From assembly GCA_018238155.1 (NCBI GenBank), contig JABCTZ010000032.1:224001-288000 (forward strand): a DNA stretch of 64,000 nt. The letters run 5' to 3'. How positions within the stretch are numbered: the stretch's first letter is position 1; each line of letters opens with the position of its first letter. Shown here one piece after another: positions 20,514 to 61,129 of the stretch. The notes below the pieces were generated by a model. It did not search any database, was not told where the DNA came from, and was given only the letters and a program-made list of their open reading frames with translations. The translations under genes and the position numbers were made by a program. Source of the DNA: Candidatus Heimdallarchaeota archaeon. Lineage in GTDB: Archaea; Asgardarchaeota; Heimdallarchaeia; JABLTI01.

Positions 20514-20835
20514 TTGTATGTGTTTGGTAAATTAAGGGCTATTGTTTTAAATGAAAATTAAAAGTGTCGATTATATTGGTACAATTGGAACGACTTCAAT
20601 ACACTAAAATTTTAAACCGAATCCTGATGCTGATAGTACATTCCTAAATATCAAATCAATTATATCAATTCTAGATGAGATTTGGTATCACAATTAATAA
20701 AAGTTGAAACAATTCTACTTTTTAGAAGTTTAAATAGTTTAATTCAGTATGCTATTATATGATAAAAAATAACCTAAAATATAGATGGCATAAATCTTTT
20801 AAGTTTTACAGACTATTTTTCATTGGGGAAAACTT

Positions 20836-52372: not shown

Positions 52373-52470
52373 TATATTTAAGTTACATTTAGTTGTTTAT
52401 TATTAATATACTTGGAAAACATCCAATAAATTGGTTTCAGGTTTAAAAAAAAATAAGGTTGAAAAAATTT

Positions 52471-52857
52471 ATGAGTAGAACAAAAGATTGGTTACAATAT
52501 TCTGAAGAATTAATCAAAATTGCTGATTTACTAATGGATAAAGGTCGTTTTTCATGGTCTTGTTTTACATCTCAACAAGCTGCAACTGCTGCCCTCAAAG
52601 CAATTCTATTTAAAATGGGCGAGTCAACCTATGGAGATAATCTTATTGCTCTTTTAAGAACTGTGAAAGAAAGCCGTGCTATTCCTAAGGACGTAAAAGA
52701 AGCATGTCATCATGTTAATGATTATTTCAAAACTAGTCGAGATTTAGAAAACAAACCCGATGGAACTCCTCTTAGCTATTTCTCTCTTAAAGAATCACAA
52801 AAAGCGAAAATTGATGCATTGACAGTTATTCGATTTGCTTATCATGAATCTCAATAG
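52471..52857 (+). CDS. HEPN-domain protein (MNT-HEPN type, probably non-catalytic)
   Basis: W......A..L...G...W.CF.SQQA...ALKA; YKTSR-like degenerate site. Confidence 0.75.
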   Translation: MSRTKDWLQYSEELIKIADLLMDKGRFSWSCFTSQQAATAALKAILFKMGESTYGDNLIALLRTVKESRAIPKDVKEACHHVNDYFKTSRDLENKPDGTPLSYFSLKESQKAKIDALTVIRFAYHESQ

Positions 52858-57188: not shown

Positions 57189-58442
57189 GTGTTAGTTTTG
57201 TCAAAGAAATCTGTTGATCCTTCAAAAGGAATTGGTGTAAAGTCTAGTAAAATCGTCAAGCAAGAGAATCTTGGAAAAAGAATTGGTACTGCAGTTGTTC
57301 ATGCAGGTGAAGAGATAAACCCTCAAACAAGAGGTGTTGTTTCCCCAATTGATTTTTCAACTACTTTTGCTTATAAAACTGCTAAAGAATGGGCTGAAGT
57401 ATTTTATCACGGAAAAGACGGATTTGCATATTCCCGCCATGGAAACCCAACACGATCAATTTTCGAAAAGAAAATAGCAATACTAGAAAATGGTGAAGCT
57501 GGTATTGGTTTTAGTTCTGGAATGGCTGCGATTTCCTCTGCAATTTTCACTTATTTAGAAACAGGCGATGAAATAGTTATCACTGATCGTTGTTATCCTG
57601 GTACTCGTCACTTATTAAATCAATATTTAAAACGTTGGGGTTTTAAAGTTCATTTTGTTAATGCTGCTAATATTGATAGTGTTAGTGAAAAAATCAATGA
57701 TAGAACAAAAATTGTTTATATGGAATGCCCTGCAAACCCTACCTTATCCTTATGTGATATTGAAGCAACAGTAAAACTAGCAAAAGAAGTTGATGCTAAA
57801 TATTTTTTTGACAACACCTTTGCCAGTCCAATAAATCAACAACCATTGGATTTCGGAGCAGATGTCATTATTCATAGTGTAACAAAATATCTTGGAGGAC
57901 ACAGTGATGTTCTGGGTGGAGCAATTGTTTCTTCTGCAGAAGATCGTGCTGAAATTATGAATACCACTGTTTATTATGGAGGTGTCATGGCGCCATTTGA
58001 TGCTTGGTTAACTATTCGGGGAATAAAAACACTTGAATTACGCATTCAAAGACATAATTTAAATTCCTTAGCTTTGGCTGAATTTTTACAAGATCATCCA
58101 AAAGTCCGAGAGGTTTACCATCCTGGACTTAAGAGTCATCCTCAATATGCTCTTGCTAAAAAACAAATGAAAGGTTTTGGTGGTATGGTGAGTTTCTGTG
58201 TAGGAAAAACCGATACAGATGGTGGAACTTTTCTCAATGCATTAAAAATTGTTAAGCGTGCAAGTAGTCTGGGTAGTGTTGAATCTCTAGCTCAAGCATC
58301 TGGTAGTATGATTTATCTCGAGTTTTCTGAAGAAGAAAAACAAGCAATTGGTATTAATCCAGGCTTTATTCGTTTCTCAACAGGTATTGAAGATAAAGAT
58401 GATCTAATTGAAGATGTTGATCAAGCTTTAAGCAGGATTTAA
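57189..58442 (+). CDS. Cys/Met metabolism PLP enzyme (methionine gamma-lyase or cystathionine gamma-synthase/lyase)
   Basis: YSR.GNPT, SSGMAAI, E.P.NP, DNTF, HSVTKYLGGHSD, SLGSVESL, R.S.GIE. Confidence 0.93.
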   Translation: MLVLSKKSVDPSKGIGVKSSKIVKQENLGKRIGTAVVHAGEEINPQTRGVVSPIDFSTTFAYKTAKEWAEVFYHGKDGFAYSRHGNPTRSIFEKKIAILENGEAGIGFSSGMAAISSAIFTYLETGDEIVITDRCYPGTRHLLNQYLKRWGFKVHFVNAANIDSVSEKINDRTKIVYMECPANPTLSLCDIEATVKLAKEVDAKYFFDNTFASPINQQPLDFGADVIIHSVTKYLGGHSDVLGGAIVSSAEDRAEIMNTTVYYGGVMAPFDAWLTIRGIKTLELRIQRHNLNSLALAEFLQDHPKVREVYHPGLKSHPQYALAKKQMKGFGGMVSFCVGKTDTDGGTFLNALKIVKRASSLGSVESLAQASGSMIYLEFSEEEKQAIGINPGFIRFSTGIEDKDDLIEDVDQALSRI

Positions 58443-58592
58443 TTTCTTCTTTTTTCTTTAATTATAATGCCTACCTTTAAATATTAAAGAAGCAATAATA
58501 TAGTTAGAGGTCAAACCTTCTATCTCCACCTATTTCACAAGATTATCAATTATTTTTCCAATTTTTGCATCAATATTTATTAGGTGAAAAAA

Positions 58593-59255
58593 ATGAGATA
58601 CATATTCGAGCCGGAAATTCTACAAGTTATATGTAAAGAAGTGTTAAAAGATATTGAATACTCAAATTTTGATTCTGAACAAAAGATCAATGAATTATTT
58701 GATAAATTAACTGAAAAATTAGCAAGAGAGTATCCAACTTATATTAAGACAGAAGAACGAAATTGGATCTTTAATAATGCTGGGGGTGCAATGGGCTCAC
58801 TTACGTTATTACATGGATCATTAAAGGAATATCTGATTTTTTTTGGTACGCCTATTGGTACACATGGTCATTCAGGAAGATATCGAAAAGCAGATGTCTA
58901 TGATATAATGTTAGATGGAGAAATGCTATGTTATAATGAAGATAAAATCACTCGAGCAACTTATTTACCTGGTGATATGGCAATTCTAAAACGGAAGTTA
59001 GCAAAAAGCTACCGTATACCTGAAAGAGCTTGGATGTTAGAATATGCACGTGGTGGTATTCCTGCCATGATTAGATTTGGAATAGGCGATAATCTCTATA
59101 GTAATTTTGATTATAAAAGTTCAAATCAGCTCATAAGAAATTATGGTAAAATGGTTTTTAGAAATCTCTTTAAACGAAAGAAGAAAGGAAATATTCCCGT
59201 GAGTGAATTTTATCGGAACCTCATTGCACAAAGTAAAATTGATTCGACAATATAA
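58593..59255 (+). CDS. ERG2/sigma-1 receptor family protein (C-8 sterol isomerase-like)
   Basis: YIFEP, WIFNNAGGAMG, LLHGSL.EYLIFFGTP.GT.GHSGRY, Y.PGD, WMLEYARG.IP.M..FG..D...S..D. Confidence 0.9.
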   Translation: MRYIFEPEILQVICKEVLKDIEYSNFDSEQKINELFDKLTEKLAREYPTYIKTEERNWIFNNAGGAMGSLTLLHGSLKEYLIFFGTPIGTHGHSGRYRKADVYDIMLDGEMLCYNEDKITRATYLPGDMAILKRKLAKSYRIPERAWMLEYARGGIPAMIRFGIGDNLYSNFDYKSSNQLIRNYGKMVFRNLFKRKKKGNIPVSEFYRNLIAQSKIDSTI

Positions 59256-59288: not shown

Positions 59289-60512
59289 CTAAGTTTTTCG
59301 ATTTACATTCATTATTTTTTCTGCTAGTTTTATTGCAGAATTGTAGCCGTTTTCAGCAGATTTAGCTGGGAGAACAATGCTGCAGAATGGATCTCCTTTT
59401 TCAAGTAGAACCTTATAATGTGTTCGATCAACAATCCATTTACTTTTTGGATATTTCAAAACTGGAAACTTTTCTTCAATATCTGAAAATAGAATACCTT
59501 TCACTGAGAAATTATGATATTTGGGTTTCTTAGGTAGTTCATGAAGAATTCCATTAAAAGCATCAATATGTAATTGTACAACATTGTAACCTGTTGCATA
59601 TTCTACACATTCCAAACTTCCTTGAAATCTCGGGTTAATTTCCATAAAGAAGAGTTTTTCATTTTTAATTACGAAATCGATTCCATTTGACCCTTTTAAA
59701 TCTAATTTTAGAAAAACTTCTCTGATATGTTCTAAAGTGTGATCAAGTAATTTAGCTTTTGTTTCTAATTTTTGTAATGGAACAACATTTCCACAGTACG
59801 AAAAATCTCCTGGAGAATTGAAATTGCTATCACCAATGATTTGTTTATTTATTGAAAGTACTTGAACAATATCTTTTGTACAAATAACAGATGAACTTGC
59901 ATCTAAACCATCAATATATTCATGCAACCAAATTTCTTTATCGTAGTTTTCATCTTTCAATTCAAAATATTTCTGCAGATCAGAATAGTTGGACCAATAT
60001 TTTATTCCTGTACCTCCTCCTCCTCCTGAACCTCGAGTAACAAGTGGAAATGGTCTATTTTTCGCTTCCTCAACTAATTCTTCAATATTCATGAAAGATA
60101 AAGAAAATGGAATATCAAAACCCGCATCCTCAGCAATTTTATGCATCGTTTTTCTGTCTCGGGTTAAAGCAAATTTCTCCGGAGAATTTGCATAAACTTT
60201 TGGTCCTAATTGATTGAACTGTTCAATAATTTTCGGGTAGCGATCAAATGCTGATCCAAATAGGATTCCATCAAAATCTTCTTGTTCATCTACCATTATT
60301 TCAGAAAGAATATAGAGATACTCAGGTGGAGAGCGATGCAAATGTCGATGAAGTGTTTGTCCAGGTTTTTGTCTTAAAACAGAGAAACAATTTTTGGATA
60401 TGTTAATTAAATCCATATCTCCAAAGTAATCTGTTGTACCAATATCATAACCTGCTTTTTTAGCTGATTTAGCGATAGGTCTGGCATTGAAGCCCGAAAT
60501 TAAAAACTTCAT
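59289..60512 (-). CDS. ATP-grasp domain protein (COG2232-like carboligase)
   Basis: R..A.SA..AG, D.FGD.D, GGGGTG, EYI.G, F.Y.GN, GIDF, EINPRFQG. Confidence 0.85.
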   Translation of the reverse strand: MKFLISGFNARPIAKSAKKAGYDIGTTDYFGDMDLINISKNCFSVLRQKPGQTLHRHLHRSPPEYLYILSEIMVDEQEDFDGILFGSAFDRYPKIIEQFNQLGPKVYANSPEKFALTRDRKTMHKIAEDAGFDIPFSLSFMNIEELVEEAKNRPFPLVTRGSGGGGGTGIKYWSNYSDLQKYFELKDENYDKEIWLHEYIDGLDASSSVICTKDIVQVLSINKQIIGDSNFNSPGDFSYCGNVVPLQKLETKAKLLDHTLEHIREVFLKLDLKGSNGIDFVIKNEKLFFMEINPRFQGSLECVEYATGYNVVQLHIDAFNGILHELPKKPKYHNFSVKGILFSDIEEKFPVLKYPKSKWIVDRTHYKVLLEKGDPFCSIVLPAKSAENGYNSAIKLAEKIMNVNRKT

Positions 60513-61129
60513 TGAGAACCAGTCTCTATTTGAGCTATTTTTTCATTTATTTTATTAAAAGTATCCAATCCAGCTTCAAATAATTTGGTAAAACCCGGAA
60601 TAGTTCTATCTCTGAAAAGAAGGAGCTGTTCCATCAATTGAAATTGTAACATAGCTTGCTCTGTAAATAACTTTGTATGAATTACAATGTAATCTTCAAC
60701 AATATGTTCTATTTCAACTAATGCGATTCCTAATAGTTGCATTATTCCTTTAAATTCTCCAAGAGATTTAGCTTTTTCTAGTTTCTTTATATTATAATAT
60801 ATTAATTGGAGTTTTTGGTCATAGTTTGATCGCAATCGAAGTAAAACAACTAAATTTTTAAAAAAACCCTCTAACATTCCAATTAGTTCAACATCAGTTT
60901 CAAGTTTGTTTGTGAATACTCCATTATTTTTCGTCCTTTTTCCATCAGAATATACTAAAGATGGAAGAACTTCTGCTGTATCTCTTAATATCTCTGTTAG
61001 AACACAAAGTGATTCTTTCAGTTCAACGAGTAGCAACATATCCTTCTTACTTTTTGTCACCTTTTTAGCTTTTTTAGTAAGAGTTTGCTTTTTGGATTTA
61101 CTACTCTTTTTCTTTGTTGACACAGACAA
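60509..61129 (-). CDS. Hypothetical helical protein with a Lys-rich N-terminus
   Basis: ORF translationally coupled to the ATP-grasp gene. Confidence 0.55.
   Translation of the reverse strand: MSVSTKKKSSKSKKQTLTKKAKKVTKSKKDMLLLVELKESLCVLTEILRDTAEVLPSLVYSDGKRTKNNGVFTNKLETDVELIGMLEGFFKNLVVLLRLRSNYDQKLQLIYYNIKKLEKAKSLGEFKGIMQLLGIALVEIEHIVEDYIVIHTKLFTEQAMLQFQLMEQLLLFRDRTIPGFTKLFEAGLDTFNKINEKIAQIETGSQ

Follow-up and report, generated by a model that had tools for sequence, protein, structure and literature searches.

Sterols are a hallmark of eukaryotes, and the division of their sterol-related proteins into those of archaeal-host and those of bacterial origin is an open question. The family of the fungal sterol C-8 isomerase ERG2 (EC 5.3.3.5) and of the sigma-1 receptor (SIGMAR1) bears directly on it. 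Both eukaryotic proteins carry an N-terminal transmembrane anchor, and fungal ERG2 is likewise membrane-associated, with a hydrophobic pocket. ERG2 homologues of bacteria go back in the literature to Desmond & Gribaldo 2009 (PMC2817430) and are discussed by Hoshino & Gaucher 2021 (PMC8237579), who call the evolution of ERG2 'complex' and 'not conclusive'; two papers on bacterial sterols (Nat Commun 2023, Front Microbiol 2016) match ERG24-27 and not ERG2. Family proteins of ∼186 aa that have no N-terminal transmembrane helix are annotated by NCBI and JGI in Myxococcota, Myxococcales/Polyangiales, Deltaproteobacteria and Dadabacteria. Biochemistry of any anchor-less prokaryotic member was not found in the literature. 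Asgard members are annotated in NCBI, among them 229-aa proteins of Candidatus Thorarchaeota archaeon and Promethearchaeota archaeon (P0049, P0053, P0088), and no paper discussing them was found.

The gene described here lies in a 64-kb window, the whole stretch of DNA that was analysed, between two convergent housekeeping genes of a Heimdallarchaeal genome.

57189-58442, plus strand: gene of a Cys/Met-metabolism PLP enzyme, left flank (PF01053, E 1.5e-136; synteny; junction sequences)
58443-58592, plus strand: AT-rich spacer after the PLP-enzyme gene, left side of the insertion (in-frame translation with two stops and no start)
58582-58587, plus strand: AGGTGA, similar to a Shine-Dalgarno site, 5 nt ahead of the ATG (read from the sequence)
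58593-59255, plus strand: ERG2-like coding sequence (P0001), stop codon included (Pfam, AF2, Foldseek)
59289-60512, minus strand: ATP-grasp gene, convergent right flank (PF02655), 33 nt from the ERG2-like stop

The gene is a real member of the ERG2/sigma-1-receptor fold, of the anchor-less prokaryotic type. Its open reading frame, read from the ORF list and translation, extends from the ATG at 58593 to the stop codon at 59253-59255 and encodes 220 aa. The protein matches PF04622 (ERG2_Sigma1R) with 202.2 bits (E 8.2e-60; curated gathering cut-off, 21 bits) over profile positions 19-210 of 210, and phmmer against PDB matches it to the sigma-1 receptor (E 8e-29); with the motifs quoted in the first-pass annotation also present, the family assignment made there holds. 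The AGGTGA placed 5 nt upstream favours the ATG at 58593 over a GTG at 58584 as start codon, and the orthologues P0002, G086 and L029 start at the equivalent Met. That the N-terminal membrane anchor is missing, as had been claimed, is borne out by the absence of any transmembrane helix from the protein (maximal 19-residue Kyte-Doolittle mean of 0.94) and by the stops that close the upstream frame. A hidden N-terminal exon or anchor 5' of the ATG was considered and ruled out from the in-frame reading of the spacer. A whole-genome HMM match that ran upstream through a TAG represents chance hydrophobic similarity only.

The AF2 model of the protein, built from an alignment of 65 sequences, has a pLDDT of 92.9 and describes a cupin barrel shut by two C-terminal helices, like the solved sigma-1 receptors.

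58611-58730, plus strand: pair of helices at the N-terminus, aa 7-22 and 28-46 (AF2 secondary structure, alignment)
58767-59054, plus strand: cupin-like beta-barrel with ligand pocket, aa 59-154 (AF2)
Within the barrel, plus strand: GGAMG, aa 64-68; E79/Y80, 58827-58832; D104, 58902-58904; E150, 59040-59042
59061-59168, plus strand: two C-terminal lid helices, aa 157-169 and 174-192 (AF2; spanned by the Foldseek alignments)
59172-59186, plus strand: polybasic cluster KRKKK, aa 194-198 (comparison of the tails of 65 homologues)
59205-59249, plus strand: additional helix at the C-terminus, aa 205-219, seen in the Heimdall clade only (AF2; tails and hydropathy)

Foldseek superimposes the model on the sigma-1 receptors 5HK1, 6DJZ and 8WUE with TM scores of 0.77-0.79 and rmsd values of 1.9-2.7 Å over 188-201 aligned columns. 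The lid helices correspond to those that form the membrane-embedded lid in the sigma-1 receptor, and the second of them (aa 174-192) is strongly amphipathic, with a hydrophobic moment of 0.57. The N-terminal helices stand in place of the eukaryotic transmembrane-plus-linker segment and, by the alignment, have an insert of ∼10 aa between them that the bacterial anchor-less proteins lack. A homotrimer is predicted with an ipSAE of 0.91, compared to 0.20 for the best control. Of 30 proteins whose solved structures are pairs of one chain, 20 reach this mark, and of 23 with single-chain structures, 1 does; since sigma-1 trimers have already been solved, the result may reflect mere likeness to them. 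The prediction runs agree on at least 97% of the contacts, partner pLDDT is at least 88, and the predicted interface includes residues 64-69, with GGAMG (aa 64-68) among them.

Residues of the pocket place the protein with the bacterial forms. E79, Y80, D104 and E150 align with E102, Y103, D126 and E172 of the sigma-1 receptor, and the first-pass annotation was thus right that equivalents of Tyr103, Asp126 and Glu172 are kept. Among 65 homologues, E79 and Y80 are conserved in 65, E150 in 64 and D104 in 52, and all residues invariant across the family (S76, E79, Y80, G85, G95, G109, G127, G154, D173) are present. Common ground with the sigma-1 receptor (5HK1, 6DJZ, 7W2B, 8W4B, 8WUE; 30-33% identity) comprises the cupin barrel, the two-helix lid, the three pocket residues, the GxxxG-like GGAMG and the predicted homotrimer, whereas the receptor's pocket aromatics W89, F133 and W164 are replaced by A66, M111 and I142 and its anchor has no counterpart. 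With fungal ERG2, represented by P0175 (Eremothecium), P0164 (Hanseniaspora) and P0158 (Auriculariales), the protein shares the Pfam family together with E150, Y80 and H74, but the four marks of the fungal pocket, D-x-F at sigma-1 positions 124-126, Q/E at 133, H at 152 and A at 170, are V102-x-D104, M111, A130 and M148 here, with the aspartate two residues later; the anchor of ERG2 is missing also, as is a sterol substrate pathway in the host. The bacterial anchor-less proteins are 45-55% identical over the whole domain and share the 11-position pocket signature HEYVDMAMEYD, which is the same in 13 of 24 bacterial and in all 8 Loki/Thor sequences. They differ in their hosts, the one considered here being an archaeon that has no triterpene cyclase, and in their ends. 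Bacterial proteins terminate in L-x-G-K-I ∼5 residues past the last helix, and the KRKKK cluster sits where bacterial and eukaryotic homologues stop, as part of a 28-aa basic-plus-helical extension. The 229-aa Asgard proteins (46-50% identity, no N-terminal anchor, identical signature) have an extension that likewise starts F-K-[KR]; theirs, however, is a hydrophobic transmembrane helix, a tail anchor with Kyte-Doolittle values of 2.3-2.8, while the Heimdall tail is polar and basic. The 'basic amphipathic tail' noted earlier stands in part: it begins FKRKKKGN... and continues into the predicted helix 205-219, for which confidence is moderate (pLDDT ∼76) and amphipathicity moderate to weak (hydrophobic moment 0.27-0.45).

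How the gene came to its present position can be read from related genomes. The surrounding genes are archaeal (rpoD-L18e-L13-S9, L13e, NOG1, RNA cyclase), and the local gene order is the same in ten genus-mates. The locus TM169-CGS-[ERG2]-ATPgrasp-hyp-Memo is kept in 11/11 genomes of the genus, each with the ATP-grasp gene, yet the ERG2-like gene is found in only two of them, G000 and G086, the latter also a Candidatus Heimdallarchaeota archaeon (NCBI). In seven genus-mates that do not have it, the stop codons of the PLP-enzyme and ATP-grasp genes are 0-30 nt apart, abutting or overlapping. The filled site recurs in independent assemblies, L039 (Logan; 94% aa identity) and L029/L030 (NCBI, ENA; 68% aa identity). 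With the tree of the ATP-grasp gene used as host marker for dating the insertion, the topology (L029,(G000,G086,G088)) is obtained at a support of 97/97; because the site of G088, nested within it, is empty, one gain and one loss are indicated. The ancestor of one subclade within the genus thus gained a single gene between the two convergent ones, and the gene was afterwards inherited vertically under purifying selection, with one descendant losing it again. The gene evolves at a dN/dS of 0.115 and dS of 0.65 (neighbours, 0.065-0.126 and 0.59-0.69), and its GC content of 31.8% and GC3 of 21% are similar to those of its neighbours. Insertion scars and mobile-element genes were not found at the locus, nor was a target-site duplication: local alignments between left and right junctions at the three filled sites scored within the range of shuffled sequences, of which 335, 1504 and 980 out of 2000 did as well.

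Based on this evidence, the gene is best explained as a laterally acquired protein of the anchor-less ERG2/sigma-1 fold for which a membrane-surface lipid-pocket mechanism is proposed, a reading that we hold to be somewhat better than an even bet. Insertion of one gene of a common bacterial type looks like lateral import and not like a forerunner of eukaryotic sterol biology. In the family tree, the Asgard clades arise from a polytomy of anchor-less homologues, some of them named as Myxococcota, Myxococcales, Deltaproteobacteria and Dadabacteria; the Loki/Thor sequences form a separate clade (support 100/99). The first-pass annotation had offered transfer from sterol-making bacteria as one of its two readings. 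Transfer is indeed favoured over ancestry, but the backbone of the tree is weak, with 27/53 at the deepest split, so that donor and direction of transfer are a matter of inference. We infer the bacterial radiation of ∼186-aa homologues (Myxococcota, Dadabacteria and others) to be the ultimate source, and the transfer possibly went via another Asgard archaeon.

The protein is most likely a membrane-surface protein that binds lipids or shifts double bonds. As we picture it, a sigma-1-like homotrimer would rest on the cytoplasmic face of the membrane, held there, in place of a transmembrane helix, by the amphipathic lid helices (aa 157-192), the KRKKK patch and the extra C-terminal helix; the Loki/Thor cousins would use their true C-terminal transmembrane helix at the equivalent place. 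The closed cupin barrel would take up a hydrophobic molecule of isoprenoid type from the bilayer, and a positive centre would there be paired with E150, a buried residue supported by D104 and Y80. The chemistry we prefer is ERG2-like: protonation of a trisubstituted C=C bond would generate a carbocation held by E150, and subsequent loss of a proton from the adjacent carbon would shift the double bond. Given that the host makes no sterol, the substrate might be a scavenged polycyclic triterpenoid or steroid, or else an archaeal isoprenoid. Ligand sensing of the sigma-1 kind, devoid of catalysis, is almost as likely as this chemistry. Four pocket residues of the proven isomerase clade are missing, and the D126-type acid is common with the sigma-1 receptor, which is not known to have isomerase activity. 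Gene context is silent on the issue, as neighbourhoods of ERG2-like genes differ between all Asgard lineages examined and no conserved neighbour indicates a pathway. The Loki-type locus L031 shares not one of its 13 neighbours with six further loci (L033 and five from Asgard archaea), the neighbour Pfam families of L024 and L036 are unrelated to each other, and the loci of the 229-aa proteins are unlike that of the window.

A more specific proposal is that the protein works as a sterol delta8-delta7 isomerase which remodels sterols taken up from eukaryotes or sterol-making bacteria nearby. We consider it improbable, although it retains a measure of support. The family is that of fungal ERG2, with E150, Y80 and an aspartate in the pocket kept; homologues bear the JGI label 'C-8 sterol isomerase', suggestive of such function; the closest named bacterial carriers have cyclases; and among 381 Myxococcota genomes sampled, a triterpene cyclase is present in 15/32 carriers of the family compared to 52/349 non-carriers, so that sterol or triterpenoid synthesis accompanies at least part of the bacterial members. 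Conversely, 17 of the 32 myxobacterial carriers show no cyclase, some of which may be incomplete MAGs. The Heimdallarchaeal protein is placed outside the eukaryotic ERG2 clade (support 100/99), which itself sits among other, bacterial homologues and adjoins a sequence with a Gram-negative gene context, and uniting Asgard sequences with ERG2 costs 60.7 lnL (AU p 0.03). Its pocket reads V-x-D, M, A and M where ERG2 has D-x-F, Q/E, H and A; with a signature of bacterial type that is unlike fungal ERG2 at these four positions, "sterol C-8 isomerase" is not established as its function, and of the earlier suggestion of an isoprenoid- or sterol-binding or isomerising protein, the isomerising part is weakened.

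The genome likewise offers little to such an enzyme. No sterol genes were found in the 64-kb window, as stated before, nor elsewhere in the genome (90.7% complete), where family searches returned no SQS/PSY, squalene epoxidase, ERG4/24, P450, FA_hydroxylase, EBP or SMT-C. The search of the genome for squalene synthase, epoxidase and cyclase that had been called for therefore gave nothing, and enzymes for delta8-sterol supply (squalene synthase, epoxidase, oxidosqualene cyclase, demethylases) are lacking as a set from the 90.7%-complete assembly. The sole squalene-cyclase-like match, at 33-36 bits, is a 344-aa alpha/alpha-toroid repeat protein, shorter than a cyclase, and was rejected. Matches to 3Beta_HSD were set aside as uninformative, the family search being positive in 14/14 control genomes and the matches here being generic NAD epimerases; no other informative sterol-modifying family was detected. 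Across 400 Asgard genomes, carriers of the ERG2 family included, a strong triterpene cyclase match occurs in none, while the same search detects cyclases in bacterial carriers of the family. Absence of the cyclase from the host and from every Asgard sampled places the gene outside de novo sterol synthesis. Delta8 sterols are pathway intermediates, and a lone isomerase acting on imported ones would hence have no obvious supply of substrate.

Still less probable is an ancestral Asgard gene that was passed on vertically, was lost in most lineages and gave rise to the eukaryotic proteins of sigma-1 type (or to ERG2). Its composition is fully host-like, and constraining the two Asgard clades to monophyly does not lower the likelihood significantly (AU p 0.41), so an old Asgard presence followed by many losses is possible. 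Nor does the AU test reject, at the 0.05 level, a tree that unites them with the eukaryotic clade of sigma-1 type (delta lnL 37.7, p 0.082). That clade is broad, spanning animals, an ichthyosporean, a red alga, a glaucophyte and an amoebozoan, and it has the D126-type acid position in common with the Asgard proteins. Yet the best tree puts the Asgard sequences beside neither eukaryotic clade, and their pocket signature is of the bacterial type and not of the sigma-1 type (I-D-F-I, W89, W164). The family, moreover, is carried by just 9 of 400 Asgard genomes, in 5 of 85 genera, with dissimilar gene neighbourhoods, and within the present genus it was inserted at a site that stands empty in 7 of 11 species. 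The phylogeny that had been proposed as a check thus disfavours the union with ERG2 and neither favours nor rejects that with the sigma-1-type clade. Restricted distribution, the subclade-confined insertion and the cost of the ERG2 union speak for transfer over the notion that the gene is ancestral and bears on how eukaryotic sterol biology began. We attach a similarly slight probability to the variant in which the Asgard proteins, comprising the Heimdall clade with basic-helical tail and the Loki/Thor clade with tail anchor, are the archaeal sister of a pan-eukaryotic sigma-1-type clade. If it were true, a membrane-attached lipid-pocket protein with capacity for cation pairing would already have been present in the archaeal ancestor of eukaryotes, and would have served a non-sterol ligand before that lineage had sterols.

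Lastly, a misbinned bacterial contig, a chimeric assembly or a decaying pseudogene is effectively refuted and carries next to no weight with us: despite an estimated MAG contamination of 5.9% and bacterial sequences as nearest non-Asgard relatives of the protein, the gene is internal to a contig extending to at least base 291,695, with archaeal core genes on both sides as expected of the archaeal host first assumed, the arrangement is repeated in G086, L039 (Logan), L029 and L030 (NCBI, ENA), and the reading frame is intact, under constraint and of host-like composition.

Our study has importance for the use of archaeal genes in the reconstruction of early sterol biology. The ERG2-family copies of archaea are most likely lateral imports, which argues against citing them for an archaeal origin of sterol biology. 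The Asgard proteins present the scaffold of the sigma-1 receptor in small versions, anchor-free or tail-anchored, that can probably be expressed in soluble form. Their sterol-free background could reveal which native ligand belongs to the widespread pocket of 'bacterial type', and this ligand would tell the role of the family before its recruitment as sterol isomerase and drug-binding receptor.

The open reading frame at 58593-59255 encodes a protein of 220 residues (the window protein) whose membership of the ERG2/sigma-1 receptor family, proposed in the first-pass annotation, is borne out by database comparison. Pfam PF04622 (ERG2_Sigma1R) matches with 202 bits (E 8.2e-60) from position 19 to the end of the 210-position profile, so that nothing but its N-terminal anchor section is absent, and a sequence search of the PDB returns sigma-1 receptors as sole matches (Xenopus, E 8e-29; human 5HK1, E 2e-27). 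The ATG at 58593 is favoured over an alternative GTG start at 58584 because of an AGGTGA site 5 nt upstream of the ATG and because of the starts of the orthologues. The AlphaFold2 model, made with a 65-sequence alignment, is confident (pLDDT 92.9, pTM 0.90), and Foldseek aligns it with sigma-1 receptor structures at TM 0.77-0.79 and rmsd 1.9-2.7 Å. Gene and model comprise the following elements.

58593-59255, + strand: ERG2-like ORF (ORF translation), ATG at 58593, stop codon 59253-59255, 220 residues
Window protein, before the barrel: two N-terminal helices (AlphaFold2)
aa 59-154: cupin-like barrel (AlphaFold2)
aa 157-192: two C-terminal helices (AlphaFold2)
aa 205-219: extra helix of lower confidence (AlphaFold2)

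In the alignment, Y80, D104 and E150 take the places of sigma-1 Y103, D126 and E172, whose retention had been read from the sequence correctly. The proposed lack of the N-terminal membrane anchor likewise stands: the highest 19-residue Kyte-Doolittle mean is 0.94, hence there is no transmembrane helix, and stop codons close the in-frame sequence upstream to any N-terminal extension. The tail described as basic and amphipathic is present and basic (KRKKK), but its amphipathic character is only moderate (hydrophobic moment 0.27-0.45).

The host assembly G000, in which the window spans C41:224001-288000, comprises 4.08 Mb in 46 contigs at 90.7% completeness and 5.9% contamination. Within 10 kb upstream of the ERG2-like gene are found rpoD with a ferredoxin insert, the genes of ribosomal proteins L18e, L13, S9 and L13e, a NOG1-type GTPase and an RNA 3'-phosphate cyclase. 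The local order (TldD/PmbA pair, L13e, small membrane protein, Cys/Met PLP enzyme [CGS], ERG2-like gene, ATP-grasp, 206-aa protein, Memo) is found again from TldD/PmbA to Memo, ERG2-like gene included, in the genus-mate G086 (isolate CSMAG_2352) and in the independent Logan assembly L039, whose ERG2-like protein has 94% amino acid identity to the window protein. With the locus thus repeated and archaeal core genes nearby, the misbinned contig considered as a possibility in the first-pass annotation is effectively excluded, as is a chimeric one. A HEPN-domain gene (52459-52857) directly follows the rpoD-L18e-L13-S9 cluster, before the TldD/PmbA pair. The ATP-grasp gene (59289-60512, - strand) shares 4 nt (60509-60512) with the upstream 206-aa gene (60509-61129), which belongs to no known family; the pair, followed by the divergent Memo gene, occurs in 10 of 11 genus genomes and in L029, a locus of a more distant relative. 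Elsewhere in the window, ARAGORN places a 92-nt tRNA-Phe (GAA), of a length suggestive of an intron, at 20517-20608, and the Rfam tRNA model reports nothing there at its gathering threshold.

The CGS and ATP-grasp genes are convergent and adjacent across the genus genomes (n = 11; G089 yielded only a weak ATP-grasp paralogue), and the ERG2-like gene stands between them in G000 and G086 only. The two stop codons lie a few to ~30 nt apart in G081, G082, G083, G084, G085, G087 and G090, and they overlap in G088. The more distant relative, assembled twice (L029/L030; NCBI, ENA), has the same filled site, with an ERG2-like protein 68% identical and an ATP-grasp protein 63% identical to those encoded in the window. 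The ATP-grasp tree recovers (L029,(G000,G086,G088)) at 97/97, the other empty-site species falling outside this group, a pattern most simply explained by a single insertion in the subclade's ancestor and one clean deletion in G088. No target-site duplication was found at the borders of the insertion, nor were any mobile-element genes. Between G000 and G086, the ERG2-like gene has a dN/dS of 0.115 at dS 0.65, compared to 0.065-0.126 at dS 0.59-0.69 for three neighbour genes; its GC content (31.8%; GC3 21%) agrees with that of its neighbours. In these respects it has come to look like any resident gene after its insertion.

Across the phylum, the family is present in 9 of 400 genomes and 5 of 85 genera, the carriers being two from this genus, one from another family of the class, two from family f19 and four from one f20 genus. 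The observation that no sterol genes accompany it extends from the window to the genome. Searches of G000 found no squalene/phytoene synthase (SQS/PSY), squalene epoxidase, cytochrome P450, EBP or ERG3/ERG25 hydroxylase family; ERG4/ERG24 and the sterol methyltransferase C-domain are also absent, a result of little weight, both searches being silent in all control genomes. The only cyclase-like match (33-36 bits) is a toroid-repeat protein whose 344 residues fall far short of the length of a triterpene cyclase. Encoded ~170 kb upstream of the window (G000:C41:53610-54644; L002:994-2028, - strand), it weakly matches the N and C domains of squalene-hopene cyclase and the alpha/alpha-toroid repeats of prenyltransferases (27-36 bits). 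Strong cyclase matches number 0 of 400 in Asgard genomes, in a search that as positive control detected full-length cyclases in 2 of 3 bacterial carriers of the ERG2-like family. SQS/PSY genes occur in 61-67 of the 400 genomes (150-270 bits), yet in just one of the nine carriers. Most fall within a small number of families (f6, f12, f31; e.g., G070:C14:31188-31958 and G065:C1:391343-392116); a 2020 paper had noted their 'current absence' from Asgard archaea (PMC7306690). With no strong cyclase match in the 400 Asgard genomes, none of the sterol families found in G000 and SQS/PSY present in one carrier only, the protein does not serve de novo sterol synthesis.

Among 381 Myxococcota genomes sampled, 32 have the ERG2-like family and 67 a cyclase, the latter enriched in carriers (15/32) versus non-carriers (52/349); as these are MAGs with kin that are not independent, the figures are counts only. 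About half of the Myxococcota carriers are without cyclase. The ERG2-like gene adjoins AcrB and an HlyD-type adaptor in the Polyangiales chromosome OZ245758.1 (L036), OEP-RND adaptor-ABC-ABC2 in a metagenomic bacterium (P0281) and ABC_tran-ABC2_membrane in a Promethearchaeote (L031): export machinery in three unrelated hosts, too few cases to call a pattern. At one contig end (L008; G032:C408), the ERG2-like ORF runs into a tail translating IGRASCRERV, probably an untrimmed Illumina adapter.

The family tree (98 sequences, 186 columns; IQ-TREE, LG+C20+F+G4 PMSF) was built from close homologues, representatives of 50%-identity clusters and genes taken from Asgard genomes. It gives strong support to four groups. 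The ERG2 clade (100/99) contains the named fungal C-8 sterol isomerases and is nested within a set of anchor-less sequences (99/81); the neighbours of one of these, which include OEP and an RND adaptor, are of Gram-negative type. The sigma-1-type clade (100/99) includes bird, snail, the ichthyosporean Chromosphaera, the red alga Galdieria, the glaucophyte Cyanophora and an amoebozoan. The Loki/Thor clade of 229-aa proteins is recovered at 100/99, and the genus-level group of the window at 99/95, with three Asgard sequences on long branches grouping with it at 85/96. The tree has a star-like backbone, and both Asgard clades come out of the radiation that also holds the proteins of ~186 aa, some of them named Myxococcota, Myxococcales, Deltaproteobacteria or Dadabacteria. 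In AU tests, whose p values are borderline and whose groups were fixed once the first tree had been seen, forcing both Asgard clades together is not rejected (delta lnL 4.6, p 0.41), Asgard with eukaryotic ERG2 is disfavoured (60.7, p 0.030), and Asgard with the sigma-1-type clade is not rejected at 0.05 (37.7, p 0.082). Lateral acquisition best accounts for these results taken with the patchy distribution of the family and the dating of the insertion. Bacteria would be the ultimate source, other Asgard archaea perhaps serving as intermediaries. Of the two evolutionary origins first offered, transfer is thus favoured, and an ancestral Asgard gene retains a small probability.

Bacterial ERG2 homologues have been known since 2009 (PMC2817430), and a 2021 paper called ERG2 evolution complex and stated Asgard archaea to be without ability to make steroid precursors (PMC8237579). 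The NCBI annotation 'ERG2 family protein' exists in Thorarchaeota and Promethearchaeota MAGs; our literature search found no paper mentioning an Asgard ERG2/sigma-1 homologue. The JGI label 'C-8 sterol isomerase' on several homologues is a name only.

Comparison at 11 pocket or invariant positions (window protein 74, 79, 80, 102, 104, 111, 130, 148, 150, 151, 173) gives the signature H-E-Y-V-D-M-A-M-E-Y-D, identical in 8 of 8 Loki/Thor and 13 of 24 sampled bacterial sequences. Fungal ERG2 and its nearest bacterial sisters have H-E-Y-D-F-Q/E-H-A-E-Y/L-D, and the sigma-1-type clade has H-E-Y-I-D-F-I-M-E-Y-D. The window protein thus shares the second acid position (D126 type) with the sigma-1 receptor but lacks its aromatics W89, F133 and W164, and it differs from the proven isomerases of the ERG2 clade at four pocket positions. 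It belongs to the prokaryotic core type.

Bacterial and eukaryotic members stop ~5 residues past the last helix; Heimdall-clade proteins continue for another 24-28 residues (KRKKK, then a helix), and those of the Loki/Thor clade for another 36, with a hydrophobic helix (Kyte-Doolittle 2.3-2.8), a predicted tail anchor. The Asgard 229-aa homologues also have a basic N-terminus.

L031:8001-8690, L024:7615-8304, L025, L026 and L027: Loki/Thor-type loci with 229-aa homologues (genomes G233, G261, G262, G143)

Whereas eukaryotic ERG2 and the sigma-1 receptor are anchored N-terminally, the Loki/Thor homologues would be attached C-terminally, in opposite topology; we found no description of tail-anchored Asgard ERG2/sigma-1 homologues. 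For the window protein, the architectural twist of a C-terminal tail is modest.

Helix 174-192 is strongly amphipathic (hydrophobic moment 0.57) and corresponds to the sigma-1 lid helices, which lie in the membrane surface (5HK1). Predicted in three copies, the window protein reaches an ipSAE of 0.91 versus 0.20 for the best control. Among proteins of solved structure, this mark was attained by 20 of 30 that are pairs of one chain and by 1 of 23 that are single chains. At least 97% of contacts are shared between the runs, pLDDT is 88 or higher, and the interface takes in the GGAMG motif. Because sigma-1 trimers have already been solved, the prediction shows likeness and is not independent proof. 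The mechanism we propose would have a trimer on the cytoplasmic face of the membrane, its barrel admitting a hydrophobic molecule of isoprenoid type; inside, E150, together with D104 and Y80, could pair with a cationic centre. A double-bond shift by way of a carbocation might follow, as in ERG2; alternatively, the protein might act by binding alone, like the sigma-1 receptor. Given that a very large prokaryotic family keeps the buried acid pair without variation, we lean slightly to catalysis over mere binding.
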